Positions 14,825 to 56,300 are shown, counted from the stretch's first letter. The stretch is DNA of 64,000 nucleotides from Chrysomallon squamiferum (GCA_012295275.1 CM022671.1:29698001-29762000); one strand, 5' to 3'. Translations and numbers: made by a program. The notes: a model not told the origin generated them from the sequence alone.

Positions 14825-14877
<53 letters not shown>

Positions 14878-29451: not shown

Positions 29452-32400
29452 TTATCCATCTGTGACGGCTACTTCTGTCAGTTTTGTTTCAGGGTTTGTG
29501 TCTCCGTTAAGTATCGGAGTAGGTGCATTATCGAGTTTGATTTGCAATTCATCCTTAATGCACTTCTCGGACGAGTTTTCAGTTTTGTCTTTGTGATCAC
29601 AACATCCATCAGTCTGTGCGTCGGTGATTTCAGTGATTTTTGCTTCACTTTTGTTCCCTGGGTTTCGTTTTGACATCTCTTGTCGGAAACGCTCGATATC
29701 ATCCGGGCTGTAAATTTTGCAAAATATTCAACCAATCATTTCAATATTCTTTCTTCTACTGATTAAAATGTTATTACTTTAATAATGTGGAACTAATGAT
29801 AAATTTCCTAAAAATTATTATTATTGGTTTTTGTTTTGTTTTTTAACTAACATTTTTCAAAATGGCAAAATGAAATTGCAAAATAAAATGTACATTTACA
29901 CTATTAAAACACTGTAGAGCTTTCCTGTGAATTGATATATATATATATATATGAAAACTGAAAAACATGCTTTGTGTCTAGGTTATTATGTGTCTGGCTC
30001 TATGTGTATATTGTACATGCTCATTTAAACTTCTTTTTTTTTGTCAGAACAGAATGATAAAGAAAACCAAATAGATTTGTGAATCAGAAATATTTACCTT
30101 ATTTGAACAAAGACGATGCCATTGATTACATTCAGTGTATCCAAAACACTTGATAAAGAAGGTGTCTGAATCTGAATAAAAAGTGATGAAACGATTTAAA
30201 AATTAGAAACTCCTAAAAACACTTTTTTCACAAAACAAAATTCACTGTTGAATGTTACCTAAATTTTAAAAATATTGGTATTTTGGATGACTAATGAAAG
30301 CACCCGCTACCCAAACAAATTTTTTTAAAATAAATTTTCTATCTAATTAAAACAATGATCGACACTTTACAGTTGTATACTTTGTTCATTTTAAAGAATT
30401 AAAAGTAATTTCACTACAAATGGTTACTTCATTTCAACAAAAGAACTGTACCAAACCATAATGTGACTGTGTTTTTAACATGACAGAAATATTCTCTTGA
30501 ATTTTAAACTGCACTTGTAACCTTGATCTTACCTTGTCTATAGGAGGAAAACCACATAAAACTGGCAAAATACAAAATGGAAATACCTTTCCTCCAATGA
30601 GTAATAAATAAAGCTATGAGCATCAACCTACTCACTGAATAATTTAAAACCACAATTCCGGTTTACCTGAATAGGAGGAAAGATGATGTTCTTGTCTCCT
30701 TTGTAAATCTCGTTCATCTTTTTCTGAAAGACAACAGCCTGCTGTGTGAGATGTTTCAAACACTCGGAACTCTCCTTAGTCCGGTCATGCTCCTCTCCAA
30801 GCTGCAAAACAACAACTTTATTCATTACCAGTTACTTGTGTTTTCTCGTTTCCCCAGTGTTAAATGGTTTATGCAATAATTTCTAGTGGGGAGATCAGTT
30901 CAACTTGGAGCTATGAAGTTTTGGTACCAAATCAGTTACAGATCAGCCTGACACAATATACCCAGACACACACAAATGATCATTATAAATGTGTAACAGT
31001 TTGTGATTACAATATAAACAGCACAAGGAAAACGATGTCTAAATACATAATAATTCAAATTACCATCTGCTTGTAGATTGCGTATGCTTCCTTCTCACTC
31101 TGAAGTGCTGCACGGAAATCTCCACGACAAGAGTGAGTCCTAGCAACCAGATGGTAACTCATGGCAACCTTTAGACTCTTAGCACCAAAGTACCTACAAA
31201 GAAAAACAACAACATTTAACTTTAAAATAAAATACTGGCTGGACAAATTTTAAAATAATTAAGTAAGTTCACATAAAAGATTGACCAACACTGTTTAAGA
31301 TCAATTTTGTACCCATGGCATGAAGCACCAAGCTCCATAAAGAGAAGGTGAGATTAACATGGAAATATTTCTATAACCTCAACTGATTATGAGAATTGTC
31401 ATGGCCAAAAGGCTTGAACCCTTGCCCGTGAGGTTTATGTAAGTGTATGATAAATATAATTGTGCCACGTCAGAAATGACTTTTAGAAAACAAATTTGCA
31501 GTCTCATCTTTGCAGAATATCTACTGCACATAGAAATTGATGATATTTTTGTAGAAATTATTAATATAAGTAGAAAAGTTTCTTTTCTTTTCTTTTAATA
31601 TCAAGCTAAATCATAAGAAAAATGTACACACATTTAATATCAAAATGACAGATTTAAAAAAATGACTACTAAATATAATAATTTTATTTACTATATTGTA
31701 TCCATGGCATGAAGCACCAAGCTCCATAAAGAGAAGGTGAGATTAACATGGAAATATTTCTATAACCTCAACTGATTATGAGAATCATCATGGCCAAAAG
31801 GCTGGAACCCTTGCCCGTGAGGTATAAATAATATAATTTCTGAACTATTTCAACAGCCCAGATACACAGCTGTTTCATGTATCAAAATAAGCAGTGTAAA
31901 AGTGTATAGAGTTTTAATTCATTACACATTTTTTATTTTTGTTTCCAAGCTTAATGAAGCAGTCATAACCAAATGTAAGGAAAAGTAAGGAAAACATTCA
32001 CAAACAAAATCATCAGTTACTATGAATGAAACAACAAATTTTGAAAAACCTGAATTGTATAGGAAGATATTATCATTCGTTTTGTACCCATGGCATGAAG
32101 CACCAAGCTCTATAAAGAGAAGGTGAGATTAACATGGAAATATTTCTATAACCTCAACTGATTATGAGAATCATCATTGCCAAAAGGCTTGAGCCCTTGC
32201 CCGTGAGGTTTAAATACAATTTCTGAATGTTTCAACAGCCCAGAAACATAGCTGTTACATACAACATAAAAAGCAGGGTAAACTTGTGTGTAATTTTAAT
32301 TCATTACAAATTTTGGATTTCTCAGCTTAATGAAGCAGTGATAACCAAATACAAGGAAAAGCAAGGAAAAGATTCATAAAACAGTTGTTTTTGTATCCAT

Positions 32401-35400
32401 GGGAAAAAGCTCCATAAAAGATGATGGATTAAATGGAAATTCAAACTCAACTGATTATGAGAACCATCATGAAAACCTGGAACCAAGGTTTTACTGAATG
32501 TTTATGGATAAAACAGGGTAAAGTTGTTTTAATTATCCATTTTGGCTCAGCTTAATGAAGCAGTGATAACAAATACAAGCTCCATTAAACTAGTTGTTTT
32601 GTATCCATGGCATGAAGCACCAAGCTCCATAAAGAGATGATGAGATTAACATGGAAATGTTTCTATAACCTCAACTGATTATGAGAACCATCATGACCAA
32701 AAGGCTGGAACCCTTGCCCGTGAGGTTTAAAAAAAAGTGAAAACAAGATGCCAAAGCAAAACCTCTTTAGTAACAGCTTTAAACAGAAGTATGAATACTG
32801 TCTATATACTTTTTCTGTCATGATGAAACAAGCCAGTTCTGTTTCTTGCTCTACATATTTGCAGTAAATTGTCTCATCTGAAACTTTCCACATACAGAAC
32901 TTACTTAACATGTCTTTGGTCAATGAATTAGAGTTGTGTGACAGTTTGAATGAGAAATTACTCAGTGGGAACAAGAGTCAATTCTGTTGTAATTATTGAA
33001 TACAGCTTAATTAGAAATCTAAACTGGTTATTTTTAAGCAGCTTAATGAAATATTTGATAATACCCTTAAAAATCACTCTACAACAATACTGTTATCATT
33101 CTGTACCCATGGCATGAAGCACCAAGCTCCATAAAGAGATGATGAGATTAACATGGAAATATTTCTATAACCTCAACTGATTATGAGAATCATCATGACC
33201 AAAAGGCTAGAACCCTTGCCCGTGAGGTTATCAAAAGTACAGGTAAAAACTGAAATAAATGAAAAACCTGTACCTGTATATATGATGCAGTGTACATAAA
33301 ATTACATCACAAACATTTATTGATGATGAGTAAAAGTATCTTATAACTGTTTACAAAAAATCACAACAGAAATTTGGATGTGACCATCAGAAACTGCAAG
33401 AAGTAAAGTCCTGTGAAAACAAATCAAACTGGGTACTGTGCCACAGAACTGCAAAGTTGTACTCAAAGAAGAATAGGCAAGAGTAACAAGGAAATGTGTC
33501 TAAAGCTCAAAACTGATTTTAAGTTTTATTACAATGAAAATTAAGCCCAGAATACATGGGCTCCAGAGGAAGATGTTTGAGAAGGGACATGGAAATACAG
33601 ACACAGACCGTAACAGCGTAAAACTGTCAGATTCCTTTAAAATATAGTTTGAATCTTTTTAACATTTTCAACTTGGTATTCGGTTCAGTATGAAAGAAAA
33701 AAAACCTGGTTGAGCATTTCAAACTGTTTTTTGTTACTGGGTTTTTGCATTTCATTGTCATCTTGAAAAAAATATTAAATAAATTTAATAAATGGTTACA
33801 CTGGTGCAACACTAATAGAAGTGGTACTTTTAAAAAGGACAAGGATTTAATAAATACAGAGAATTAAAATAAATATATATTAACTAAGAAGTAAAACTTT
33901 AAAAAAAGGTACTTTGATAAATAAAATATATGCTTCTTCACAAAATTCAATAGAAAATCTTTCCTGATCTTAATGTAATGCTACTGGATTTCTTCAACGT
34001 TTGAGACCAAACCTATAAAGTAGCTTCTGGAACAAAAATCTCATATTCTGTACCCATGGCATGAAACACCAGCCTCCACATGGAGCGAGCAGGTGGGATT
34101 AACATGGGTTTCTGTTTACTGTCACCTCAACTGATTATGAAGACCATAAAAGCCTGTAGGCTTGGCTCCTTGCCCGTGAGGTGTACAAACATGGAATATG
34201 AAATATTTTAAATTAGTGAAAAAAAAACCCAATTATATTCACTTTCTAAAAATAAAACTTCAGACAAAGCAACTGATATAAAGTTAACTTTTGTTATTGC
34301 TAGAGATTGTAATAGTATTGTTAGAATATGATGTTCTGAAACAAATTGTTTAAATTAAATTGCAACAGAATCTTACCTGACGTTCAGCTGTAGTGTGTGT
34401 TCAAGAAACTTCAGTGACAGTTCATACTCCTCCACAGCATGCAAGATCAGACCAATGTTGCTCTGAAAAAAAAATAAAAACTTTAATATCTCAGTATTTT
34501 ATAACATCTCATAAATGCATTCTTTTTCCCCATCTGCATTTCACTGGTAATTCAGAAGGAAAAAAAAAAAAAAATCATGTCACCTGTTTGTTAATGACCA
34601 AAATTTTCAATACCATAAACAATATCTTGATACTAAATTTTAGGTATAATTTCCTTTTAAATTTAAGATGATGAATTAACATTGTTTTAATATCTGAACA
34701 TGAATATATTTTTTGTTTGTTTATTTGTTGTTTTTTGTGGGGGGGTTGTCATCAAATATTATTAAAAGTATAGGACATTATTGACTAAGAACAAGAACTT
34801 TTCTTTTTACATGTACCTTCCCATAAACAGAACAGTAGTTGTCTGTCATTATTTCATGCAGTGGGTTTACCAAGTAGTACTGATTTTGTAATGTCAGTGA
34901 AGGTCTGTTACCAATTTCCATGAATAATTCAGACATAAAAAAAGTTTTACTTACATCAATGAGTGCAACATCTGGATGGTTTTCTCCGTGACACAGGATG
35001 GCCAGGTAACGAGCCCTGTACATCAGTCTCAGGGAACTTGATACCTGGTTGTTGGCAAAGCAGTACAATGCCAGATGTGTCTGTACAAACAAAATAATTA
35101 AATAAATTAAAAAATTTTTTTTTTAATAAAATCCCCAACTACTTACATTGCAGTTAAACCTAATACTAGAGTTTAAACTAACAATTATTAAAAGAAAAAT
35201 AGTTTAGTCCAGAGGATACACAATGCAATATTTACTACTTTGTCAAACAGGACTTTAAGTGATGAAAGATAAAGACTGAGCCTTTTTTAATAAATAGATC
35301 ACCATTTGTTTCAAATAAAAACAAAAATCTTCTCAAAAGTTGATGTTGTCATTTTCAAAAATCTTTCAAAATGATTTCTAAATATATAGAATTCACCATA

Positions 35401-35728
35401 TTTTAAAACAATGCTGAAACAATCACATTTATCGTCACAATTTACTACTCACGTATTCTGTGATGGTGTTTGGATGGTCAATGCCAAGCACACGCTCGCT
35501 CATGAGAACAGCTCGCTGTTGGTATGACAACGCTTCTCCATAGTCACCCATGATGTAGTTCAGTCGTGCCAGAAGTCGCAGACAGGCAGAAATTTCTGGG
35601 TGCATTGCACCGTAAACATTATTGAGGAGATTCAGAGCTTCACTGATCAGTTCATAGCCCTCTCTCAACAAACCCTGCTGAATTTTAGACTGTCCACTCG
35701 TAAAGAAGTGATAAGCATCAGTAGCCTA

Positions 35729-35798
<70 letters not shown>

Positions 35799-38700
35799 AA
35801 TAAAATAAAATAAGTTTACCAAAGAAAAGAAAGAGATTATGCTACTGCAGCCACTAATAGAAAACAATATATAGTACTTGATTAAATTAATAAATATGAA
35901 TATCTCTGGAAGCATTTGGAAATCTGGGCAAAGACAAATATATCAAGTTTAACCTATTTTGCAATGTATTGATCTCCTTACTCATAAATTTTAATTTTAG
36001 TGGCATTTATAATTCCTGGCAAAGTGTTAAGAATAATTTCACAATTTACACATTTAAAAATTTATATGCTTTTTAATAATTTATAATTTTACTAGTTCCC
36101 AAAGTATATATATATATATATAAAAAATAATCAATGTAATTAATACCACTTACTTTAGGATGTATATGCTTGACAATAGGGTATACATTGACAATGTCCT
36201 CTTCAAAGAAAATCTGCTTGTTGCGAATGTCCAGATGGTACTCTCTCAGCAGAACCTGGATTCCCACCGAGCGACAGAAAGCTCTCATAAGTGACACACG
36301 CTGCAATCCATACTTCTCTACCGCAGAGTCCACAGAATCACTGCAACAGAAACAAGCTAATAAGTGTAAAATGAATCACAGTATTCAATTGTGTATTAAT
36401 AAAATAAAATAAAATATTCAACATCACTGGACAACAATGTATATTGTATTCAACATCACTGGACAACAATGTATATTGTATTCACATGTTAATACAGCCC
36501 ATCTCTGCTATATGCTTTATATTAAATTATTCCATCAATCAAACTTAATAAACCGTTTAATAAAATACACTGAATTTCATAAAGTATAGCAATATATTTA
36601 AAACAATCTGTAAATAATTATCTTATAGTTGAAGACATTTTCTATTTTGTTGGATTTAACTGTAATTTTACATGATAAATCAGGTAGTTAACATTAACAA
36701 ACTACATTTCATTTCCATTACTTAAAATAAATTCGATAATAAAAAACTTTTATTCCTTACTCATACTGAACTGTAACTTATTTTAAGAATGTCTAAATTA
36801 ATTTATTCATTATTTATAATTATGGATCCACCACAAACAAGTTTTTTAACTTTAAGGCCATGTTATCTCACTCACCACTCGAGGGTGTAAGTGTAGTAGT
36901 CACTAACTTCATCAACAATCTTCTTCCACAGAGTTTTGGGCGTTTCAGAAACCCACTCACTGCTTTCTGCAAAAAGAAACATACAACAATATTTACTGAC
37001 TATTAATATTAGCGAACTACATTTCATTTTCATTACTTGTTGTTATCATTATTACTTTACGTTTTTTTTTAGATTTTTGAAAGTCAAATCTAAGAACTGA
37101 TCTTCAGGCGTCATTGAACTAATTTCTATAATATCCAAACCTTTAACAGCCTTTTCAGAATACCATTATAACAATCCCTAAAGAAAGGTAATATATATAA
37201 TTCTAGACATGAACAATGAATTGGTATTTAGGCAAGCCAAAGTCTGTGAAAGATACAGCACGGCCTGGCTGGGAATCACTGCTACAGTTAAAAAATAACC
37301 ATAAAATTATCAAAAAACTTAAAAATAACTCACCAACACTGAATACAAAGCTGTGCTTATTCTTCTTCTTGCTTTTGCGTTTAGCAGTTCTGCTGGGTAT
37401 CTGAAAAAAGACAACAACAGAAACCTCTGAAACATTTGTCATGTGTTATTGAAAGCACATAATGACCAAATACTCCAAATACTTATTTTACTACATGGCA
37501 TTAAGAAATGTTTCAAATATTTAACAAAATTAAAACCAATGACATGCCATTGATGTATACAATTAATAAAAAAAAATTAAATAATAAAGGCTATTTATTT
37601 GGGTTTTTATATATTTTTTTTATTATTAATCACAAAATGTTGAAGAAAGATTGCATTTAAAAAAATGTAATGAAATTAACTTAATCTTTCCTTCTCCAAC
37701 CCCCAAAATTTTATTGAACACCAATGGTACAAAATATGTCTTACAGAACAAAACATGTTTCAGGTTAGATAAAACAAAACAAAAATGTAAGCAAATGAAA
37801 AATCAAAAACAACAAAATAACAACAAATAAAACAAACATTTCAATAAATGTTATTTCCAAAAGATGTTGCATTTTGAAAAACTTTAAAGAAAAAATTAAA
37901 AACTGGACCTGTTTAATTAAAAAAACCAGCATTATCATAGAAGGAAAAATTATTTGTAACTCTTTTAAAAACTCTTCACCAATATCATTTATTTGTATCC
38001 ATGGCATGAAGCACCAAGCTCCATAAAGAGATGATGAGATTAACATGGAAATATTTCTATAACCTCAACTGATTATGAGAATCATCATAGCCAAAAGGCT
38101 AGAACCCTTGCCCGTGAGGTACAAAACATATTTTTTAACATGTAACAAAAACATGAACTCAAAACTGAAAAAGAATGTCAAAGAAACTACCATCTTGAAT
38201 TCATGACAAACTTGAAAATAAAGTAAATTGTTTTTTTAATCCACTCGATCCTGTTAATGGGTAAAAAAAAAAAAAAAGAAAGAAAAAGAAAAAAAAAAAA
38301 AAGAAAAAGGAAAAATATTAAGCTGGCAACAACTGACATGTATTATCCTTCTGGAGAGAACTGTTAAAGACATTTGTTCATCAACTGAACATTACAACTA
38401 GGATTAGAGTAATCCATAGTCTGGGAATTAAACTGAGCGATATACATACATATACAATATATATAGATTAAATTTTAAACTCAAAATGTAGCAAGTGATT
38501 GCTACTATACAGAAATGATTATTAATCACTCTACCATTAATTCAGTTAAAATGAATTCTTCACATGCAAGTTTATGCATCAAAATAAATCTGTGGTGTAT
38601 TTGTTATCGCTGATTTTATCTGTTGGTAATTAAAAAAGAAAAGATTAAAAAAATCATATCTACTATTATTCAGGTACAGTACATAGAGCAACGAAGAACA

Positions 38701-41700
38701 TTTTCCTTTTAATCATTAATGTTTATGAAAAATGACCTTATTTACAGTTATAATATTATGTTATATACAGGAAGACATCAACAAAATGATTACAAATAAA
38801 TAATGTATACAGCTGTACCCATGGCATGAATCACCAAATCCAGTAAAGGAAACAGTGAGATTAACATGGACAGTTTCTTATCACCTCAGCTGATTATCAA
38901 GTTCATAATGGCCAAAAGACTAGACTCCTTGCCCGTGAGGTTTCATACCAACTGATCATTATTCCAAATATCCCTCAGAAAAACCATCACAATAATAATA
39001 ATAGTAATAACAATGACAATAACAATTACTATAGGAATAATAACAATAATAATAGTAACTAACAATAAGAAGAATAAACTGAAAACAACATCTCCTTGTG
39101 TTATCAGAAAAAGTGTAAACATCTCATGAGTAAAAGATTTCTACAAATATCTTTATCCTTTTCCCAGGATGAACAATTAAAACCATCAAGTTTATATACC
39201 AACACCCGTTAATTATCTACGTTATTACATACCTCCTCAGTTGTCACTTGAGCATGCGGTGTGGGGTATGAGCCAAGGTAACAGTTGAGAAAATGGCTGA
39301 TGGCAGAAGAGAGGTTGACCAGGTCGACACCCTGCATGTACGTCTTGAAGATTCGCTTAGCAGCACGACAGATCAACTCTCCTATAGCTATACTCTGTAC
39401 AGATATTTAAATAATTAAAAAAATAAATTAAAATTTATAACATTTTAGTACTGTATTATTTGCTATCATTTATTCAGAAGTAAAATATTCCAGTAAATTT
39501 TAATATTTAATACAAAAAAAAAATAAAAATAAAAAAAAAACAACAACATATGCATCAAAAATTAATTCAATAAAAATAATTGTTTATCCTTATTTTTAGA
39601 AAGAACTAAACTGTCTTATGTGATGAATTAAACTGAACATTTTTCTTGTGGAAACAGATTCATGAAAAACTGGTAATGTTTCTAAAATAATTCATAACAT
39701 GAAAAATAAAAATAAAAATAATTGCAGAAATATATAACAGAAAAACAAAAGATATATATTTACTCACAAAGACATATGATACTGTTGAGTATTTGGAAAA
39801 TATGTCTGCCACTTTGCCAAGGTAACGCATGTTTATTCCACGATTGTGCATTGCTTCGCTCAGCGTCAGCCCGTCAATTGGAGAAGATGTGTGATCTAAA
39901 CAGTCATTCACCTGAACAATTCACAAAACACAAATATAACTGAGCAATTTACAAAGCAACAACCCTGAGTAAATCCCAAATCAGAAAATAATAATCAAAA
40001 TCAAGCATTTGCCAAGAAGACTGAATTAGATTCAAAGACCTTAACCAAGATCTGAACAAATGTTTCTAACTTTTGAACAGTTTCAAACCAGTATTACGTT
40101 TTTTCTTGTCAAAAGACATGAATAAAAATCGGAAGAGTAAATTTCAGACTTACCAATGTAGGAATCTGGTGCAGTAGAAGAAATTCTGCAGCATCCTTAA
40201 CCAACTGTTTCTCCATCTTGAACATTTTGCTCTACAAGGAAACAAATATATCTGTTTAATACAGTTTACCATACTGACTCACAGAAACACAGACATGCAC
40301 ACACAGACACTGACACACATACACAGACACAGACACACACAGTCACTTAAGGACATCATTTTATTCAAAATCATAAATTTCTCTTTGAACAAAGACATTT
40401 AATGTGAACTTACTTACAAATGAATTTATTTCACATCCTTACTTCAAACCAACTATGAAATAATTTGCCAGAGGATTTTTTAAAAAAAGAAAAGAAAAAG
40501 AGAAATTTCTGTGAATGTACATTATTATTTCTGTATATCAGACAGTTAAGATAGAGTATAAATAAATACAGAAAGTGTGTGGAAGGACAAATGAATGACT
40601 GAAGATGAGGAGGAATGTTTTAACTCACCTCAGGATCAGCATGCTGAACATGTGGCTGAAAGACGTCTGGATTAAAGGTCATGGTGAATTCTGAAATAAA
40701 ACAAAATATAAACTTTTTAAAGACACACAAATCATCAAATTTACTTCTTTGGAAATCAGATGCACTTAACAACAATAACAATACTAATAATTAATAGCAA
40801 AAACAGGCAATTTTGATCACACCATTGAACTGCCTTAATATTACTATAATATCCTTATTAATATTAATAACAGGTTTGCTTATGTAAAACAAGATCATGT
40901 TTGTGATATATTTACCACACAAAAACAATGTTTTTTTTACCTGTTTCACTCAAAGACCCCACAGCTTTGGCAGCTTTCTTTACAATTTCTCTTGTGCTTT
41001 CTTCAACTGAAAGTAATAAAACTGATATTAAGATTCTACAAGACAAATACACTAATCCTTTTCAGTTTATACTGTCAATGTTACTTGATTTTCATGAACA
41101 TTAGGAACACCAAAATAATCAAAATAACATGTAAATATTCCCTGTACTTCAGTTTTAAGAACATTTTAACTGCAAAAACACTGTAAGATAATAATACAAC
41201 ATTAACACTATGCTGAATGAATGAATGAATATCAGTGATTTGTGACTTAAATAATTAAGCTAAATTAAAAAAAAAAAAAATTTAAAATCAAGCTAAAATA
41301 CTGTAAAGAGCTATGCCACCATTAAGATAAATTTAAAAATAGTGTGAACATTATTTACATGTCTGATTGTCTGTTCCTGTGAGGGTCTCAACAATCTTCT
41401 TTGCTTCTTCTGTAGCAATGTCATCGTCAGACTTGTCCTTTTTGTTACAGTCATGCTGTTCATTTACCAGCTCTTCTGTCGACTGAAGTACATACACAAA
41501 GTATGAAACATTTATAAAATCTGGAAATTTTAGGATGAGAAATATTCAGTTATTTTCAAAGTTTATGATGTAAACCCACAATGTGTTTTTCTATTTCCAA
41601 GAAGTGCTTTTATTTTTAAGAGATAAATGTTACAAATGCAGAACTCGACATACCTTGATTTCTACAGTTTTCTTTTCTAGTTGAGTTTCTACGTCAGTGG

Positions 41701-44098
41701 TGTCCATCTCTTTCACTTTGTTCTGTTTGGCCTGCTGTAGCTGCTGGAACTGGAAGGCAGCGTGACGCACGAAGGCAACATATCGGTTTCTGCAATTTAT
41801 CAATGAAAGAAAATTTTAATAATTAAAAAAATCCAGAAAATTTACATAAATTACTTATTTAAGATCTTGTGTTAAGCATATGGATTGTCATTAATATATA
41901 AAGGTAATTTCAGTTTCAGCAGGAAAATTTTCCCCTTTATTTATTTTTTTCTTCTCACTAACATATATCATGTAACACAAAGAATATAACTTATACAAGC
42001 AGTCAACATTCTTAAAAATGTATATATATTTTTCAATAATCTAACCATATGGAAAAGTATTTTTTAACAAGATTTGAATAAAAACCAATCGATTTCTCAC
42101 TTTCTTAATGTAAAACATGATATACATTTATAAAAAAATTATGAAATACATTTATAAAAAAAAAAAAAAAAAAAAAAAAATTAAAAATAGAAAACTAACA
42201 AAACCGCTCAACTTAAATGGACACTAATAAATATACACAAGTCACTCACTCAACAAATGCTTCTATCAACTCCTGTCTCAAACAAGCCAGCTTGTGTCTG
42301 TGGTTTTTAGGGTAACCCTGATCCCTCACTTCTTTACTCAGCTCATCACTGTCAACTGCAATATCAATAAAAATTGGGTAAGTATGGGAAGAAAAAACAC
42401 CCTGTATACATAATTGTGGATTAGAATACATCTGGTCAAAGAAAATTTTAATTTATTAGTAAGGAAGGCATAGCTTTTAAATTATTTTTAATTTTCTTAT
42501 TTTGTAGGGTTGTTTATAAAAGATATCTATTACTGTAATTATGGTTAACAATAGAGAAGCATATTTAAACAAGAGGGGGTAGACTACAAATACATTAAAT
42601 GTTAAGAATTCAGTCTCCAAGAGGACAATAGTTTATATACTAATGATTACATTTAAGAATGGTATAATTTTTTTTTTTTTTTTTTTTTATGTCTTAATAT
42701 AATCAGTTCTCCATCTTTCATTTAATATGAGTATAATAAATGTATTTTAAAAAATTTATGAAATTTTTTTTTTTAATATATAATTGTAATGTAGTATTAT
42801 TAAAAATACTATCAGTTACCTGGAAGATAGTTGACATCAGGAGGAAATGTTCTGAGCAGGTCAAGGACGTAATGTCGCTGATCATTACCAATTATTCCCT
42901 GAAAATTAAATCAAAATATACTTTTTACTGACATTATATTTCTTAAAAAAATTTTTAACATATTTAAAAAAATTAAAACTAGCCAAAAATAAAAAATATA
43001 ATTTTACTACAGCAGAAAATATCAGTTAACACACATCTGTGCTGAGCAAAAAAAACTAAATTTTATTTACTGTCCACAACTTGATATAAACTGTAAAAAC
43101 AAGTGTGTAAATGACACATTATTTGTAAAACTGACTATTCAAGTAGCTCTATATTCTTCAGAATCATCAAGTGAACAGAAAATAATAAATTCTTGAAGAA
43201 AAAGTTATTACACACCTTGCACTCAATGGATGAATACAGTTCTATTTCTTCATCTTTGTTATTTAGCACCCTTTAAAAAAAACACCAGTAATGTTATAAA
43301 GATTTAGGTGAAAGAAACATTATATAATCCAAGATACAATTTGATCAAAATATTTTAAAGGTCAAATAAATATTATTGTGAGATATTTTCTGTGTCAATG
43401 TAAAATTTATCTAATTATAGTTTTTTTATACTGAATTCAGCTATTATATTTCAAATCTAAAAAAAAAAAAATAAATTTAAAAAAATTTTTTAGTAAGACA
43501 TTTCTAAAACAAGTTTACTTACTTGTGTGGCCTAATCTTCAACTGCTGTGCAGTTTTTGAAGCTGAAAAGAAATGTATTTAATGAAAATATAATACAGTT
43601 AAACTAAAGAGATCAAAGATAAATAATTCTTTATATATGAGGATTCTCTAAAATATTTATTACTGCCAAATCTATTATTACTTGCAATGAAAATTCATAA
43701 ATTTACTTGACGAATAAATCAAATGTTTCAGCATTTGAAATCAAAATATGTAAATATAACTTAGCTAAAAATGTTTCTGCACTCCAGAAGTAAAAGAACA
43801 TTATAATTAAGTTAATAAAATAAAAAAATAATAAAAAATAAAAAATAATAAATATATATATATATTTGATAATGACAGACTATATGAAGATCCACTGGTT
43901 TAATGAATTTGCAAGTATTTTTGAAAATCATACCAGCTCTTTGTATTTTTCATGTGTAACAACTGTTTTGCCAAAATCTACAGATCCGTAGACCACTGAC
44001 TGTTCTTGTTCTCTCTCGAGAATTCCTAAATAAAATAAATATTATTCTGTTTATTTTAGAAAGTATCAAATGCCACAAAAAATGTTAAAATTTAACTG

Positions 44099-44143
<45 letters not shown>

Positions 44144-47100
44144 GCATTGTCAGTTTCAGCCCATACTATTGTTATTTATTCATTTAAAAAGAAAAGAAGA
44201 CAAGATTTTACTGAAACCAAAGACTTAAACATATCTGAGTTTACATGTATAACTATTCTAAAGATCTACAAAATTTTTGATCTGAATGTTTAATATATAA
44301 AAGTTTAGTGATGTATTTGCATCTGCAAACTGCAAGGAATATAACATGAAGTGTTAGAAAAAGTGGGTACAAACCTGGGATAATGGATTGAGCAGTAACT
44401 CGGTAACCACGATAGTCAATGACAACAGTTCCTAAAGTGTACAGATTTTCTGGATCAATTCCAAAGTATGCTTTAACTCCCTGCAAGTCACTTCCCTGAA
44501 AAAAAAAGAAGCAAGAATTATCAGGGTATTTTGGTTAATGTCCTGCAGGTGCACACTCTAAACCACACCCTAATTGTAATTTATTACTTTTAAATCAAGT
44601 AAAATATTAAACTATAAATCTATTGACTTAAATATTTCCTGACTTCCAACAAAGGCGATGATGACTTTCTTATAACGAGCAAACCATCATTACTCCATGA
44701 AACTACACTTAGCAGCAAGTGATCTATGACTTGCACTCCCCCACAAACAGGAAAGCACATATAATCACCACTGGATAAACCAGTATAACATACTGATTAC
44801 TGTTCAGAAACAAGTCAATGGTGCTCTAAAAAGGACTGATCATGCGATCTAAGGAAGAATATTCATTGGCCTTTGATAAATCATTATATGGGGAAATGAA
44901 TCCAAGGGAGATACTAATAAGCATAGAATGCTTAGAATTCGTATCTGGAAAAATCATGGTGACAACCTATCTGTGCCAACTGTTAGATATACCCAATGAT
45001 GTATTGTATAACAAGTTTTAAATTCTGTACAACAGCCACCTGTGTATAACAACTACTACTGTCTGGCTGTCAAAGACATGATACATGTACTGAAAATTTA
45101 GAAATTTTTAGAACTAAAACATACCGGAGCATAGTAAGCTGCAGCATCACCTCCAAAGTCTTTGTAATGATCCTTAACATCAAAACCCAGACTGAAGAAA
45201 ATGTTGTTCCAGATAAACATCTGCATTCTGTAATACAGCAAAATCAAGTATGTGAATATTAAATGCCATTAAATATTTTCACTGAAGGTGTGAATATATA
45301 AAGTTTAAACTGTGTGAAATAATTCAGGATTTGAGAAATAACATGTACTGCATCCTCGGTAAAAACTAAAGTTAAATATTTAACCAAAGATATGATAGAG
45401 AAATTATTACATCCCATATAAAATGGTTAAATTCTATCACATACTTTACATTATGTCACATGTATGTTCAAATATAAAACACAGAATATGACATCCTAGA
45501 GATAAAACTAAATTATTTGAAAAAAAAAAAAAAAAAAAAAAAAGAAATAGTCAAACATATGTTGCAGTCGATATTAATTATAATGTATTCCATCCTTTGA
45601 AAGATGAATACTTATGTTAATTTATTCAGGTAATCTGTTTTTAACCATTCCATCTGTGACAAGAAATGCTGTAGATACTTAGGATGTCAACCCAGTATAT
45701 CAGTTGAAAACTTTATTCAAGTCAATTATAATAAAAAAAAAAATAAAAAAATTCTTTTTATCTCACTTTGCATCTTCACCAGGATTAATGGCCATAACAT
45801 TTCCATCAATGACGGCCACCGCACCACGTGTAGCAGCTGCTACAAAATCACTGTGTACCTGCACGAGAGAGAGAGAGGAAACAATAGTTGTTTAATTTTT
45901 CACTCATGGACATTGTGTAGAATATTTAAAAATAAATTTAAAAAAAAACAACTTTTTATTTGAAATACTATGTAAGAGGATAATTATTAAAGCTTTAATT
46001 ATTTAAAAAAATAAAAAATAAACTTTGTGCTGAATTAATAAATTTTGTTACTTTGAAAATGGCTCTCTCTCTGATAAGTCTCTCAGGCAGGTTTTTACGA
46101 GACAGTTCTCTTGTTGTTTGTATTTCCTCGTTCCAGTCTCTCGTCTGACCAGGAATATGTTCTTCATAACCCAATCTCGTGGAAAATGCTAAAAAAAACC
46201 AAAACATTATAATCTTCCAATATTATTTAAATATTATACAAAATATGCAAGAGCTACATGACACTTATGTTAATAGTAATATTTTTGTTATGAATATTAC
46301 AAAATGTCTGGAAAAAAAAATTATGAAGAAAAAAATTCTAATTATCTAAATGAAAGTTTAAAAAAAAACTACTTCTTTCATGTATTTTAGTAATGCAAAT
46401 TTTATGTAAAACTTGGTGTAAAAAGGCTGTGAAAGATATCTTATGACTTGATTGTGAAAATGCAACTGTAAATAAAATCAATAATTAATTTCAGTTTGTA
46501 GACAATCAAAAGCCTCCATTAAATAAGGAAATAAAAAAATTAAAACCTGCTGGTTGAGGATTTATCCATTTTTATCAAGTATAACCAAAAAAAACATTTT
46601 TTTTTAATAAAGAACGTTTCATCATTCTTCCAATGTTAAGCTAATATAGTTCTAATCAGTAACTTATCAAGACACAGAAGCAAACTCCCGAGAATGTCTA
46701 TGTAAGAAAAACTTAAAATATCATCTTGTTCTTACCATCCTCTGCTCTGATGTAGTCAATGACATGATCAGGGTGAGGGGCCATCCAGCTGTACACCTGG
46801 TATGGACTAGGCACACGTTCAAATGGGTGTTTCTGTGATCTCTTTTTCAACAATGTGGAGAAATTCTTTTTAAATGCTGGGCTAATCTGTTTGGAAAAGA
46901 AATAATAAAATATGTATTCACTGGAATTGAAATATTTTATATTTAAAGTTTATGTCTCTATATTAGTCCTGTCTTCTTTTTCTCTTTTTCTTTTTTATTT
47001 AAAATAAAGTTATGGTAATTTTTAAAAAATAAATCAAAAAAAAGTTTTATTCAAGAAAGTATTTTGTATAAAGAAAAGCAAAATAATTCAAAATTTACTT

Positions 47101-50100
47101 TTAATGTGTTCTCTCAAACATTTACTTGTAACCAATCATAAATTATCTTTTTTTTCATTGGTTTACATTGCAAAAACCTGTTAAAACCTGTTTTTGTTGT
47201 AAAATACAAACAATTTTGCAAATACCTGGTTGAGAAGATCAATGAGGGAATGTGATAGGTATTTAGGCTGAGCAGCCTTAGGGTTGAAGTCATCTTCGGT
47301 TGATCTGAAAAGTTAAGAAAATAAACTTGTAAGACTAGAAAAGCCTTATTATTAAAACTGTTGGTTTATTTTTTTATTATGTAACAGAAAATTACAAACT
47401 ATAAATTTAACATAATTCAAAACCATAACACTTTTTCTCAGCTTTAACATACACAATTTTGAAAAACAATTATTTACTTCTGAACCTATCTCATAATACA
47501 AGATATTATGTACAAGGAAAGCAGTCACAAATACAATCTTAAGAAAACAACAAAGAAACAAAAGCACTGTTTATAAACAAATTTACAGAGTGATTACACC
47601 ATCTTTAGTAATTTATTTAGAAAGTGTTTGCAACTTGAGTGTACCTGGAATAGATGCTAATGAGGAACAGATAGTTTGGTATAAAGTTTAACTCACTGAT
47701 TAAGGTAAAAACCTCGAGTAGATGCTGTCACATGATACTTCTTGTCCTCCAGAGTCACAACATAGAGATAAAGCAAGTCACCTGTCAACAAATTAAACAA
47801 ATACCACTACGATGAAATTGAAAATAAAAAACAAACAATCCAAAAAACTGAATTTCAGATATTGCACACGGTATTTATATATGAACAAATGAAAGAGAAT
47901 ACTTTTTTAAAATTTTAAATACTTGAAAACATTTTATGGAATATATATCCTATATATTATTAAAAAATAAATAAATATAACTACAACAAAAGAAACAATC
48001 AATCAATTACACTGTTACATCTATCACTATTTAAAAAGTTATTCCACATATCAATTTAAAAAATAACATTTTAAAAATTAAAACATTAGCTCTATTAGTA
48101 GTTGTAATTCAGAAGTATAAATGTACAGGGGCAACATTTTGGAATTATTTTAATGTATACTGAAGACCAATTTGAACAGGTGTATATTAAGAAAACTGAA
48201 CGTACCATGCATTCGTCTGTTGCCTGGAGGTGGATTCCAACCACTGTATGTGAGAACTTTCAGACATGTTGGACCCTGTTAACAGACAGGTATAGGTAAT
48301 AATTAAAACATGTCTTTGATAGCTGATGTTTGGAACATCATGTAAATATAGAAAAACATAGCCTTTACATACACACACACACACACACTGTAGGTATATA
48401 AATCAGTATAATTCAAACCTACCTTTTCTCTGCAGATTAAATTCTATATAAATTTAAGTCTTATATATAGCTTGTATAGATAGTCTCTACAGTTATTTTA
48501 TATAATATTTTTAATAAAGGTTCCATAATTTCCTTTAGACCTTTGTTTCTCTCAACATATGAACTAATATTATTATCCATTTGCATTTGTGTATAAAGTT
48601 AAATATTGATTATCGTATTACATGAGTGACTTTGTACACATTATGATAATAATACCTTGAGTTCTTTTACTGCTGGATGCAGGGGAGTTAAAGGTCTTGT
48701 GTTGGCTGATGGCATTATGTACTCAGGTGGGGTGCAGTCCATGGAACTTTGGGCTGACCGTTTCTTTTCTAAAAATAGGATTCTGATCAGATAATTACTT
48801 TAATACTTCTGTAATAGATAAATAAGTCCATTGTTGCCGTATCTATTTTCTAATCATACAGCAGTAAAATTTATATCATAAGTTAAACCCTAGAATTTAA
48901 ATACAAAAAAAAAAAAAATAATAATAATAAAAAAATAATATACAAATTTAAAGTAGTATTTTAGTTTATGAATTAAAAAGTAAAAACTACAAATGAGATA
49001 CAGGCATAAAAAAAAAATCCCCACCCCCAAAAAAAACACTTCAAGAAAGACAAACAGGGCAAATCAATAAATTATACCATTTAAGACGTAAACAGAAGAA
49101 TTACAACAAATTTATAATCCGAACCTAGGATGTCACCCGCAGTTATTGTGTTGAGGAAGGACAAAGAGTTGCAGTCAATTCCGTTGTACGCATCAGCAGG
49201 ATCCACAGATTTCAGCAAATCTCTGACGTGTCGAACGTGAATCCTTGCTTCTCGTACTGTGTAAGGCTCTGAAAATTTGAACAAAATAAACTTTTAATCC
49301 TTTCATAGGAAGCCTAGATATGAAACTTCCTTATGAAATGATTTACTGATTCGTTAAGATTCTATTTACAGTCACTGTTTCTAGGGCATGTAGAGATAAA
49401 GAGTAATAGTTGTATTTAAAAAATACTGATGTTATTAATTTTAATTATTATTTTTTTTTATCTTAGTTATACTGACATTATTAGTTTTTATTATTATTTT
49501 TTTTTTGTCTTTGTTTAATGTCAGAAAACATTCAAAAAATAAAATAGAACAATAATGAAAAATCTGAATAGTATTAGTTTAGATATGTTTTATTCCTAAT
49601 CCTTTACATACAAGATAAACAAAAGTAATAACAAATAAAAAATGAAATAAAACAACAAAATTTAAATTAAAATGCATTAAAATAAATGGAAATAAAAAAA
49701 AATGAAAATAATATTTTTTCTTCGATGACAAACCTGTAAAAGAGATTTATTTGCTATCTAATTAAAAATTAAACTAATCCAATTTCTTATTAGATACAAA
49801 AATCAAAATACAAAAATACCTGACCATCAAGCCTAATGAAGTAAAACAAATCTAAATCTACCTTCTACTACTTTAAGGTGAGACCCTTCTTCTAGACCCT
49901 CAATGGTCTTCAGTTCTGCGAAGTTGTCCAGTGTGACACCGTCCAGCTGCAGAGAAAAACATGTCCTGTGACACGTATCTTCACGATCCATCAAAACCTG
50001 GTGGATCTCCTGAACCAGCTCCATAGAGCTCACCTGATAAAAATAAACACTTCTTGAACTGCAGGACAGCACACACCAAAGTTATAAAAGAATACACATA

Positions 50101-53100
50101 TTTGTAATAAATAACCTATCACCAGTAATACCTGATTAAGGCTTCTTATAGTAATTTTGATATATTATCTATTGTTACAAGAAATAAAATAATATTCTAA
50201 AATATTTTATATATATAAGCTTTTATCTTTTAAAAAAAAAATAATAATTTAAACAAAGTGCTTCATAACAAAGCATAGTGCTTTATTTTGAACTGGAAAT
50301 AAAATGATAAATTCTAAATTAAAATGAATTTAGTAATTCATTACGTCCATGAAAGTTTAATAAAATTCAATTAAAATCATTTGAATACATTCTCTAGCAG
50401 TAAATTAGTTTTGATATCCCTTCCTGCCCATCAGTAACAGAAATTCTTAAAACTGACCTGAATTTTTTATACATTTTTTTTTTCAAAATGACTTTTTACG
50501 ACAGATCTGTAAGAATGGAAATGTACGTAATTGTTACTAACAGGCAGTTCAAATGATTCAATTCCTGGTGCAGAAAGTTTGACTGTGAAACCTGTATCTT
50601 GTATGAGAACAAGTTCCTGTTCTTTCTTTTCATCATCGTCCGACTTCTCGTGATCTGCATCATCTGATTTTTCAGGCACTGTCGGGCTGCCTGGGGCACT
50701 GTCATCTGAACTCTTGTCCTCAGAACCAGAGTCGTCAGTCCCATTTATCTCCATATCTTCCACTGAAAAGATAAAACAGTTTAAACTGAAAAACTAATTA
50801 TTCCAGATTTGTTTTAAATACAAAATGTCCAACACTGAGCCAGCAATTCCTGAGACCGAAGATGGCAGTATTATGCTATCAGAAATCAGATACGGAAGGT
50901 GCCATATTTGAATTGTATGAGCAGTACAACAGTTTATTACCTTTTACCTTCTTAATTATGATCTAAATACAAGAGAGGTCATCTTATAATGCTGTATTTT
51001 CCATCTAAAAATTGAAATCTTTTACCCAGTATGAAATCGATCAGAACTGCACAAGCAATCCATAGTAATATTGGTTAACAAGTTTGATATACAGATATGA
51101 AGTATATTTGACTATTTTTAATAAAAGCAGCATGATCATTATGAATGTTACACACCTTTTGTATCACTGTGAAATCTGTTATTCAGCACTCTAAAATTAC
51201 TGTTATCTTTCAGATAATCAAAAACAATGCATACTTTCATGTTCATTGAAATACAGTAATACTTCACTGATACTCAACAGATGTTAAAGAACTCTTCTCT
51301 GTTCCAATAACACCTGAACTGAAAGAAACCTAATAGCCAGAGATAAAACATTTTATCAGTGATTACAGGAACAATGATCAGACCCATAGTTACCATGCAG
51401 TTATTACCTTCCTATGATTATTTGTGAAACAATTGAATTCTGTTTCTTTCTGTTTATTTTTTTTATGTAAATGAAGCTGATTTATACACCTTAGATTTTA
51501 TATCTGTAGTTTAACCACTGCACTTGAATTTCAAATGTTTATATTTTTAAACTGTCTACAGAATTCTAATGAAAGTTACACTTAGCATTAATAAAACAGA
51601 AAGAAAATGTCAGAAATGAAACTTGTTTTGGAAAGCAGCAGATTCTTTTCCAACCATTCTTGACTAACTGAAATATGCAATACTACTACTACTACTCACA
51701 TTGTGGATGTTCATAGTTTTTAACAGATGAACAGAAGAACAGTCCAGTTATATTCAGTACAAGAAATAAACGTCTGCATTTCAGGTAATGTAAAACTTGT
51801 AAAAAGATTTTTACTTCATTACAAATTTATACAACATGATAATTATTAAGTAATTCTCTTAGAAAGGCCTTTCCCCACAGCATCCAGAACAAAAATTTGG
51901 TTTAACACCTGAAATAAATTACTTTATTATTGTAACATTTTCCCCACTTGGATTCAAGATAAATGTAAAGATATTTGTTTTTGATATATTACATTTAATT
52001 TGGATATATTACTTTTAAGGGAATCTATTATTATTATTAATAAAATATATTTTTTCAATGTTGAACATGTATGTGGATCATGTTTTAATCACTTGAATAA
52101 TCTTTATTTTTAAACACAATACACTACATGTTGTCAAAACATAAATCATTGTCTAGGACTTGGTGATAAGATCTTGTTGCCTTCCAGTGGATAGCATTTC
52201 TTGAGATCAATGTAAAGTCTTGTGACAGAAAGAAAACTAGTACCGTGTACTGTAAAGTTCACCAAGACAGGGCATGAACTACCCATTTTATCTAACCAGT
52301 AAATTAATGTTGTATTATTTAGGTATTCAATGCCAATAATTTAATGTGCATGTCTTATAATGCGTAGATATGGTTATATGTATTAACTGGTTGGTCAATA
52401 TAAAATTAGTTTTTATTTTATTTTTTTTATTTTTTAAAGCATTAACAATAACAAAAACAAGCTAATGGGGGTCAAATAACTTAAATAAGGGTGATTAAAG
52501 GAATTTTTTTTAATTTATTTTGTTTTTTAAAATGTTTTTATAATATTTATCACTGAGAATTTAATAAATATATATCTTTGTAGCATATCCAGAAATTAAA
52601 ACCAATTATTAGGCATCTAACCACTTCTGATTTTAACACCAGTTAACATATGAAATATGGAATCACAAATACCTACCAGTTTCCACTCTCACGGCTATGA
52701 ACAGGAATACAAGATGTACAGTTATCACACAAAACCATACAAAACATGTAACTGAAATATTAATGATGTGTGTTCATGTACTGGTACTTGCACAAAGAAC
52801 AGAGAACAAACAAGTCTATAATCTCTCTTATGACATTGAGAATAATCTGATTTTCCACTGACTGCTTATTCTTATTAATGTTAATCTGAAATGGTTTACA
52901 GTTGCTGTTCTCTTTATTCAATTAACATGTATGACGTAATGTGTGTATCTTGATATACTTCATTAAAGTACATTCAGTCTATTTTAGTACAACAAATGTT
53001 TATGTATGTGAAGTAAATTTAATTACATTAATATTGAAGAACTAAATGATTTTAAACATTTTAAAATTGTTTTTATAAACTTTTTTTTTAGTCAAAACTT

Positions 53101-53330
53101 TTGTGGAAGTTATAAACATATTTTATCCTTTAGGTAAATGTTTTAAATCAAGCTTTAAAAATGTTAAAGCTTTTCCCACCATTCTACAAACAAAATAATA
53201 CTGCATAATGTTAATGAAACTTGAAACAGTCCAAAATCTTAATTTGTGGAAAAAGACATTCAGTATAATGTAATATATCATGGCACAACTTGGTCAGTAT
53301 TATATATATTATATACATAAAAACAGTATA

Positions 53331-53363
<33 letters not shown>

Positions 53364-56300
53364 TATAATGTGTATGTATGTATTTACCACTAATTAATCC
53401 ATATTTATCGATTAGTTTAGAATAGTTTTAATGTTTTAATGTCTGGTTTGTTCACGTACATTTTGTAAACAGCATGTTTTCAAGATTCCAAAGGATGACA
53501 ATAGATCAGTTTTAAATTTAAATTTCAAGTATTGGTAATAACTGTTGCAATATCACTATTATAGTACCTCACAAAACAGATGCTATGACCTTTCACTAAC
53601 ATTTTTGAAACAAAACCTTTCAGAAACTAGGTAAAAAGTGTTTGTGATAAAGATGGCTTACATTAGGTTGGAAACATGTGGGGGTGTTTATCGTGTGACC
53701 TTCAGTAAGGGGTCAAAACGTGCAGTTCTTTCACCACAGCGTTCTGAACAGTACAAGGTTTTCATTATTAAACAGGTACACTGTAATGCACACCAATACA
53801 AAAACTAATTTTCATATATTCATGGTACACACTTTCCAAATCTGAATAATCATTCGTGGACATTTGCCAGTGGAAGACAACAAATTCTATCTGGCCAGTT
53901 AATCTGCATGAACATCAGGTGCTTGTACAATTCACCCATACTGTGTGATCCCACTGGCAGCTGAAGAGATTTGATTTCAGAATATCTTGATTCTAAGAAG
54001 AATTAGCCTTTTTACAAAGAAGATAAAACTATTTTTAATTCATTTTTAAATGCTTTATAACATCAACAGACTAAGTCTTGCTTGAAAACAATGAACCAAT
54101 ATTTTAAATTTAAAATAGGATAGATACATACATATAATTTTGAATTTGATACTCAATTATGATTTTAAATTAATAATCTGCTTCCTTTCTCACTGTTTAC
54201 TCCTTATCGAAACCTCACTTCCCTGTGTACACAATTTGAAAGGCCATTTTTCTTTTATCAGAATTTTTTTTTTCATCTGTTAATTATCTATAAATAACCA
54301 TATTATTTCTTTCGCAGCACTGTTAAAATGAAATACAGTCTAAAACTTTCAGGGTTAATGTCAAAACTTAAAGCAGTGCATAAAGAAAATACAATTGTAC
54401 AAATATTATCCGTAGAGGATGTTTTAACCTTTTTGCAAACGGTCGTAGATAATGACATTCAAAATAAAACATTTTAAATACAACAAAAGTTAGAAAATTA
54501 ATATACAAATCAACCCAGTTTTAATCTTTTAGCCATTTTCAATCAGGTTTTCTCAAAATGTTATTTGGAGGAATGCAGTCATGTAAAATAATATGTGACA
54601 TTACAATCAGTTGAATGATTTTAGTAAAAAGAACAATCTGCCTTTTAAACTGTACATCATTACATACAATGAAAATATCATACAAATTATTTACAACTTT
54701 TCTTGCAGTATGTGGTTTTTCAACTATTTTATTTATGCACATAACTGAATGGGAACAAAATTTAGTGGGGTTAACAAAAAAATGTTTAAACTTTACAAAC
54801 TGAAAACTTATACCCTCCTTGTTTATGTTTGAAGAAGCAGTAGTTGGCTTTGAACCAGCATGAACTTCAGAACAAGACAGACATGTCCGAGTTGGCTTAC
54901 TGACCTGATTCATTCAGGTTAAGCAAAACTTTTGGTCTTTTAGGTATTGGTGATTATTAAAGTTAGAATCAAACTGAACAACTGTATAGCATAGTCTAAT
55001 TACTCTGCTGTTACCAGTAAAAAATGATCACTGATTTGTTGTTTCTACTTTTTCAGTATGGTTTAGTGGGGTTTTTTAAATTAAGCTTAGAGGAATGCTA
55101 GTTTTTGGCAGAGGGGAGAACAACTGTATCCCAATGGTTTCTTTTGTCAGTGAAACTTATTTTCTGCCTTTTCCTTACATTTATGTTAAACTAGCAATAC
55201 AGAGTGGCTGTAGATCTTTCAGTCTAGATGGATAATCTGTGATTGTTGACAGTTATATTTACAAGGTTTTGGTCCTGTCTTGACCACAGTTGAAAATGGC
55301 TGGAAAAGAGGTAAACGTTTTTTGTATATAATCTTACATACAACAGAATTGGATGAATAAAAATAAATACATGAGCACTGACCTGAAACGAAGGTGACAT
55401 TGTCAGATATAAAATAATAATTCGAAACTCATAGTCAAATGCAGTGCTTTAGGATATTTTAAAATGTACAAAGCAATTAATCAGTCCAAAACTATTTGTA
55501 TTCATTCTATGCTTACAGTATGTACAACAGATTCTGAAATCAGCACACTCAAAAGATTGTAATATGTCACAGGTGGTGGGGAGGGAAGACTGCCAAAATA
55601 CGCATAATATTCAGAGACCGAAGTAACAAACTTTGAGACCAACTCATATACCCGTATTCCATTACAATTATAGGTTATATAGTTTATAAAAACGTAAACA
55701 GACCATTATTACTTCATTTATTTTATTTATGGTGTTTAAAAGTCCCTAAGTACATTTGTAAAGTTTCTAGTAACTTTTATGTTTTCAGTCTTTTATAATA
55801 TAACAAAATGTACTCAGGCTGTATGCTTAACCAGCATGTGCTACACTTTACAACAATATGTACAATCAAGTCTAGGAAACAATGTAAAAACTACAATGTC
55901 ATGCTCTTCAGAAGTGACCTAGAAACATCCTAGAACAACAACCTAGATACATCACAAACTGATAATGACACTAACTTTCAACACATTTATTAAGAAAAAC
56001 AAAACTGTACAGTATTTAATCAGCAAACTGCAATGATTACCTCCAATAAGCTTTTAATCCCAAAACAGATTAACATACATACAATTTATATACAAAAAAT
56101 GAACATACAAACCCTAACATTTCGTGTTTCTGACGATGTATTCATCTAAAATGTAGTGTATGTGCATTGTCATTCAGTCGTGTGACAGCCAGTTTTTCAA
56201 CAGACGAACTAATTATACTTCAGACTTTGTGCAGGTAAAGACAGGCACTTATGGCATTTTGGGTTTCATAATCCTTGCACAACAAAGCAGAAACATGAAA

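Follow-up and report, generated by a model that had tools for sequence, protein, structure and literature searches.

The window analyzed here, a 64-kb stretch of DNA from Chrysomallon squamiferum, encompasses on its minus strand the gene for CLUH, along which (57654-29455) the CLUH protein of Gigantopelta aegis maps in tblastn pieces of 67-100% identity, mostly 70-100%, the one exception being a self-repeat match at 30%. A CLUH exon is 100% identical to the G. aegis protein and 96% identical to that of Haliotis. Two introns of this gene contain copies of a box H/ACA snoRNA gene (Table 1). The preliminary description of the locus had recognized a single RNA at 34046-34182; this element is real, but its host gene and seven further full copies, which BLASTN and nhmmer detect between 31305 and 38941 along with one decayed piece near 32450, had been overlooked. 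No guide strand or box is missing from any of the eight full copies, and a pattern consisting of the boxes and three guide strands has exactly 8 matches in the window and 0 in 100 shuffles.

Table 1 The CLUH gene, its snoRNA-bearing introns, the snoRNA gene copies and the parts of the copy at 34046-34182
Feature	Position	Strand	Remarks
Host gene CLUH/TIF31, clustered mitochondria protein homolog	29455..57654	-	coding exons share the strand of the snoRNA copies
CLUH intron with two copies	37401..39232	-	spliced as one piece in RNA contigs from two runs
First copy, upstream 1832-nt intron	38811..38941	-	intact; 74-80% identity to the others
Second copy, upstream intron	37991..38120	-	94-96% identity to copies 2-6 in the six-copy intron
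CLUH intron with six copies and the decayed one	31194..34376	-	GT..AG; spliced as one piece in RNA contigs from two runs
Box H/ACA snoRNA gene copy (first in the six-copy intron)	34046..34182	-	from geometry, guide strands and folds
Hairpin 1 5' guide GGGCA	34171..34175	-	pairs with the five bases after U-N, yeast 25S U2191
Hairpin 1 3' guide AAUCA	34132..34136	-	begins 14 nt before the H box
H box ACAGUA	34117..34122	-	conforms to ANANNA
Hairpin 2 5' guide GUUAAUC	34097..34103	-	pairs with the seven bases after U-N, yeast 25S U2314
Hairpin 2 3' guide UUCAUGC	34059..34065	-	begins 14 nt before ACA
ACA box	34049..34051	-	3 nt from the predicted 3' end
Copy 2, six-copy intron	33099..33228	-	four guide strands and both boxes intact
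Copy 3, six-copy intron	32597..32726	-	intact
Decayed partial copy	32390..32490 (approximate limits)	-	lacks GGGCA and UUCAUGC; E 0.045
Copy 4, six-copy intron	32080..32209	-	intact
Copy 5, six-copy intron	31694..31823	-	intact
Copy 6, six-copy intron	31305..31434	-	intact; ~110 nt from the 3' splice site

On the minus strand, both minimum free energy and pocket-constrained folds of 34046-34182 yield a pair of hairpins, each with an internal loop, together with a hinge and a tail, the parts following one another in the order lower stem, GGGCA, upper stem, AAUCA, H box, GUUAAUC, upper stem, UUCAUGC, ACA. In 8 of the 8 window copies, an H box of the form ANANNA lies in the hinge, the ACA is 3 nt from the predicted end, and each box is separated by 14 nt from the first base of the corresponding 3' guide, so the H/ACA anatomy and the 14-nt spacing initially described for one element hold across the whole set. 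The folding energy of 34046-34182 is no better than that of shuffles (z -0.64, minus strand), and nowhere in the 64-kb window is the gathering score of any Rfam family reached; hence, the case for a snoRNA rests on geometry, targets and conservation. A plus-strand reading of 34046-34182 was dropped, the boxes and pockets being on the minus strand, that is, the sense strand of the host gene. Variation within the species is uninformative here: a 901-nt stretch varies by 22 substitutions and 8 indels, of which 2 and 0, respectively, fall inside the 137-nt element; both substitutions are in hairpin 1, one in the loop and one in the upper stem, and the pockets and boxes carry none. Elsewhere in the window, outside CLUH, there is a weak match to SCARNA7 (14836-14987, minus strand, 20.4 bits, E 0.82) that is probably due to chance.

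The copies fall into two classes that do not follow the division between the introns. In each intron, it is the first copy that diverges, with 72-80% identity to the others (72-74% in the case of 34046-34182, which is located ~190 nt from the 5' splice site of its 3183-nt intron), whereas the remaining six are 92-96% identical to one another across both introns. Between the 60-nt 5' flanks of the copies, similarity is 45-58%, with a single pair reaching 73%. This pattern of similarity suggests recent duplication or gene conversion between the CLUH introns, as judged from the sequences. DNA contigs from two studies contain the unique spacers 31367-31725 and 33161-35376 and end at the copies, which is consistent with a genuine tandem array. 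The decayed copy at 32390-32490 adjoins repeated spacer sequence and looks like a by-product of tandem duplication.

The prospective targets were sought in genome contigs with a pattern composed of the complements of both pockets on one molecule, the variable base of GAUUAAC being left free. LSU rRNA was matched in at least 20 loci, and those listed comprise 13 archaeal records (138-nt match) and 7 loci of eukaryotic type (137-nt match); all four eukaryotic-type loci submitted, out of the seven listed, match the eukaryotic LSU rRNA family RF02543. The same two-pocket pattern had no match in viral contigs. A distance of 123 nt separates the two target uridines in all seven eukaryotic-type loci listed. 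With the first uridine set to yeast 2191, all 18 modified yeast positions are reproduced in four of these seven loci, and 14, 15 and 16 of the 18 letters in the other three; offsets of 1 to 6 from this anchor give at most 9 of 18. Thus, the anchoring to yeast positions identifies the sites as Psi2191 and Psi2314, which the yeast table of modified positions assigns to snR32 and snR86, respectively, in agreement with the equivalents originally proposed. The seven eukaryotic-type loci (L003, L007, L008, L011, L016, L017 and L020) are located in bacterial genome records (with the RF02543 identity confirmed for four), which points to contamination of those assemblies.

Complementarity was computed on LSU rRNA of other organisms, none of the loci being known to be animal. 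For hairpin 1, the best site in 5 of the 5 LSU loci scanned is the predicted one, with 5+5 pairs, and for hairpin 2, it is again the predicted one in all five, with 7+7 pairs in four and 3+7 in L008, so that the pocket pairing given in the preliminary description is reproduced on the LSU rRNA of other eukaryotes. When the pocket letters were shuffled and compared with L016, matches were obtained in 15 of 20000 trials for hairpin 1 and in 0 of 20000 for hairpin 2. The fit of the hairpin 2 guide to the GAUUAAC variant had also been interpreted as co-evolution with the host rRNA, an interpretation that finds no support for this RNA: GAUUAAC is present in 19 of the 20 LSU loci listed, including all 13 archaeal ones, the remaining locus has GAUCAAC, and none has the G variant. 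GAUUAAC is therefore the common state, and the guide match is no sign of local co-evolution.

To identify homologs, metagenome loci were scanned with a pattern made up of both boxes and all guide strands other than GGGCA. The scan produced 49 matches in 46 loci. In 23 of these matches, GGGCA occurs 32-41 nt upstream, against a background of 2.0%, and 3 more have a one-letter variant of it at the right distance; the other 23, with neither, were discarded as chance. Removal of duplicates left 21 distinct non-window sequences. Because these were chosen by a pattern with three guide strands and the boxes, their likeness to the window copies is partly by construction. A profile built from the 21 non-window sequences alone detects all 8 window copies near full length (E 7e-15 to 2e-21) and nothing else in the window at E<=1, and also finds further paralogs within the metagenome loci. 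In the alignment, the conserved columns are those of the guide strands and boxes. All 21 aligned sequences have both AAUCA, which belonged to the search pattern, and GGGCA, which did not, and the H box is intact in 19 of them.

The identical pocket pair, in the identical order, is found in homologs from four other groups of loci, one of them coral-like. The loci of the first group lie in lysyl-tRNA synthetase genes, with exons identified in 9 of the 9 loci tested; the best named hits are to stony corals at 90-93% identity over a 43-residue query and, given that an insect hit also reaches 90%, the assignment of this group to stony corals is probable rather than certain. The second group consists of L028, L038, L041, L044, L049/L050, L056 and L062. 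The third is represented by L032, whose best hits are at 61% and in which a BET bromodomain gene carries two copies, both between one pair of exons, and the fourth adjoins exons of a Ras-family GTPase that reads as Ran from its sequence. CLUH exons were found in none of the 46 metagenome loci.

The predicted stems of these RNAs covary, that is, the sequence differs and the pairing is retained. In the lower stem of hairpin 2, both partners are changed at two pairs, in 7 and 5 of the 21 sequences, respectively. In all four stems, strands pair better with their own partners than with those of other lineages, the cross-lineage pairing being at least as good in 36, 99, 97 and 38 of 332 comparisons; the separation is weaker for the lower stem of hairpin 2 and the upper stem of hairpin 1. 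This anchored test was used in place of RNAalifold, which on the MAFFT alignment of the 21 sequences returned 10 pairs only, all in hairpin 2, and missed hairpin 1, in which the 5' stem strand does not stay in register from group to group.

The combination of the two guides on one RNA had been regarded as a novelty with respect to yeast, SNORA48 being credited with U3797 only. However, a supplementary table of PMC6984369 lists snoRA48/ACA48 for both human 28S-U3674 and 28S-U3797, the human equivalents that had been proposed for the two sites, so that the pair is already assigned to a vertebrate RNA. For Xenopus tropicalis, the same table gives U2833 and U2956, with three copies, and the human and frog pairs both differ by 123. 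That table notes that Psi3674, long listed among the orphans, had been assigned recently, and it has no entry in the verification cell for snoRA48; PMC8240307 treats the role of SNORA48 as predicted, with no experimental evidence for a guide role as of 2021, and places the gene in intron 4 of rat Eif4a1. In Xenopus, PMC8609340 places both SNORA48 and SNORD10 in eif4a1.

The resemblance of the CLUH copies to SNORA48 (RF00554) extends beyond the targets, which are predicted by complementarity on both sides. As read by eye from the printed Rfam consensus, the U3674 pocket of SNORA48 is located in the 5' hairpin and the U3797 pocket in the 3' hairpin, as here, and the consensus, at 135 nt, represents an intronic RNA. 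The differences are in the guides and the host: hairpin 1 of the SNORA48 consensus has GGGUA and AUAUCA against GGGCA and AAUCA here, hairpin 2 has GUUCAUC against GUUAAUC, with UUCAUGC in both, and the SNORA48 host in rat and frog is EIF4A1, where it lies beside SNORD10, as opposed to CLUH. Residence in EIF4A1 next to SNORD10 characterizes the vertebrate gene without strictly defining the family. The G variant GAUGAAC, given for human 28S rRNA in the preliminary description, would fit the GUUCAUC of SNORA48; if human 28S rRNA does carry it, a compensatory change at the variable base seems to have occurred on the vertebrate side.

The comparison with the Rfam models of SNORA48, snR32 and snR86 that the preliminary description had suggested yields no match in the window copies. 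The snR32 and snR86 models are absent from all Rfam scans of the window, and in the stretches for which the cutoff was relaxed to E<=10, RF00554 still has no match to the window copies. The homolog at L032:4480-4617, by comparison, aligns to RF00554 positions 1-135 with 28.2 bits (E 0.0048 in 2.6 kb), below the Rfam threshold of 50 bits, and 1.3 kb away, in an intron of the BET bromodomain gene, L032:3086-3180 matches a SNORD10-like C/D snoRNA with 28.7 bits (threshold 37). No SNORD10-like motif was detected in the window. Given the lack of an RF00554 match in the window copies, we regard the CLUH element as a likely orthologue of SNORA48 from an invertebrate but not as a formal member of the Rfam family.

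Another known RNA that appears to carry both pockets in the same order is Caenorhabditis ceN84 (RF01655), the consensus of which contains UGGGCA and AAUC in hairpin 1, and UAAUC and UUCAUG in hairpin 2. Two window copies match ceN84 with 21.4 and 13.5 bits and L032 matches it with 25.8 bits, all below the gathering score of 80. The target assignment is our reading of the Rfam consensus, and in the open-access literature we found no paper that names ceN84 targets. By this reading, ceN84, which is in no Rfam clan, may be the nematode counterpart of SNORA48. The resemblance to other guides is partial. Yeast snR32 and snR86 act on the same two sites, Psi2191 and Psi2314, but are two separate RNAs, with members of the snR86 family ~1 kb long. 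The Plasmodium snoR31 consensus has the hairpin 1 pocket in common with the CLUH copies, and Schizosaccharomyces pombe snR90 (first hairpin) and Dictyostelium DdR18 (3' hairpin) share the hairpin 2 pocket, each with a sub-threshold match in one hairpin. The two separate guides of yeast may represent either a split or the ancestral state, and PMC5824354 reports that in fungi the snR86 guide has switched from one hairpin to the other. The dual guide is, on these sequence comparisons, the known SNORA48 arrangement, widespread in animals.

Taking these observations together, we consider it highly probable that 34046-34182 is one of eight intronic copies, in a gastropod CLUH gene, of a predicted guide for the equivalents of U2191 and U2314, and likely an orthologue of SNORA48. 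We rate as improbable the principal alternative, namely, that the function is SNORA48-like and the descent separate, the two pockets having been joined independently in vertebrates and invertebrates by shuffling of guide hairpins. Such shuffling of antisense elements between snoRNA families is documented. The failure of the window copies to match the SNORA48 model, the change of host from group to group (CLUH, lysyl-tRNA synthetase, the BET bromodomain gene, the Ran-type GTPase and EIF4A1) and the single pockets of snoR31, snR90 and DdR18 would all be compatible with independent joining. Against it, all groups share one order of the pockets with SNORA48 and nematode ceN84, the L032 homolog aligns to the whole SNORA48 model, including the stems, and lies near a SNORD10-like gene, and snoRNAs usually do move between introns and hosts.

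It appears quite improbable that hairpin 2 alone is a working guide, with the 5+5 pocket of hairpin 1 conserved but non-modifying on endogenous rRNA, or serving as a chaperone contact. Hairpin 1 has just 10 pairs with its target, three coral-like loci have a one-letter change in GGGCA, and PMC8522698 describes conserved antisense elements that act on artificial substrates while leaving endogenous rRNA unmodified. Nevertheless, the invariance of GGGCA and AAUCA across the aligned homologs argues for a functional pocket, and pseudouridine has been mapped at the hairpin 1 target in both yeast and human.

H/ACA RNAs are released from introns, and each hairpin is bound by dyskerin/Cbf5, Nop10, Nhp2 and Gar1, with the target uridine presented in the pocket. 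By this general scheme, the CLUH snoRNA would be expected to be co-transcribed with CLUH and then freed from the spliced intron, each of its hairpins binding dyskerin/Cbf5, Nop10, Nhp2 and Gar1; hairpin 1 would bracket the equivalent of U2191 and hairpin 2 that of U2314, 14 nt from the respective box, and dyskerin would isomerize the bracketed uridine. The RNA contigs over 34046-34182 extend beyond both predicted ends, and contigs cover parts of the six-copy intron, one of them running on beyond the first copy for ~110 nt in the direction of the splice site; such contigs do not tell pre-mRNA from stable intron or DNA and hence are not counted as evidence of a mature RNA.

The presence of several copies in one intron implies either cutting between the copies or a long RNA capped by snoRNAs. 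In silkworm and vertebrates, introns mostly hold a single snoRNA each, and this is also given as the usual rule in PMC7038934. In Drosophila, several H/ACA loci are clustered in introns (PMC3089462), as in CLUH, albeit in a different organism and different host genes. We find it very improbable that most of the CLUH copies are never separated, such that exonucleases trim the two introns to snoRNA-capped RNAs of ~2.9 kb and ~0.95 kb and few or no free guides are produced. The six and two copies in single introns fit this scheme, and long RNAs with snoRNA ends form in this manner in mammals (PMC7038934); the general clustering of Drosophila H/ACA loci in introns (PMC3089462) indicates, in turn, that clustering in itself is ordinary, and the internal CLUH copies retain all guide strands and boxes, as expected of working guides. 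To a related, more elaborate version we assign little probability: the six-copy intron might be trimmed to a stable 2.9-kb RNA with six H/ACA RNPs, an invertebrate sno-lncRNA that would tie the output of CLUH, a mitochondrial-distribution gene, to dyskerin binding and ribosome modification. If true, this RNA would present 12 pockets for two rRNA sites, in the vent-snail lineage. Finally, that a lineage-specific RNA has newly joined the jobs of snR32 and snR86 and co-evolved with the host rRNA, a scenario to which the separate guides of budding yeast lend some color, is almost certainly wrong, the pair being combined on one RNA in vertebrates, in the ceN84 consensus and in coral-like and other loci, and the matched rRNA variant being general among the loci listed, archaea included.

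The element is real, rightly read and ordinary, most likely an unannotated relative of SNORA48, and the understanding of H/ACA guides is unchanged by these findings. The open-access literature yielded no paper about this mollusc RNA, and there is an annotation gap, in that the vertebrate-trained SNORA48 model of Rfam misses these invertebrate genes; the alignment of homologs could seed a wider SNORA48 model that takes in ceN84. The weak assignment of Psi3674 gains comparative support, the hairpin 1 pocket being imperfect in vertebrates and a perfect 5+5 in the invertebrate RNAs. If the coral-like placement holds, the distribution of homologs suggests that the dual guide is no younger than the ancestor shared by corals and bilaterians. 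The six-copy intron offers a usable case for studying the processing of multi-H/ACA introns in animals outside Drosophila.

Some of the sequences in the homologous loci depart from the common form. Among the coral-like loci, the paralogs L035:708-847 and L042:365-499 have intact pockets and a broken H box, and L043, L048 and L057 have a one-letter change in the 5' guide of hairpin 1. L049 carries four copies within ~3.2 kb. The paralogs L049:5225-5367, L049:6258-6389 and L044:772-908 have changes in the pocket of hairpin 2 (GAAAAUC in place of GUUAAUC, or UUCAUGG) and are possibly decaying or retargeted.
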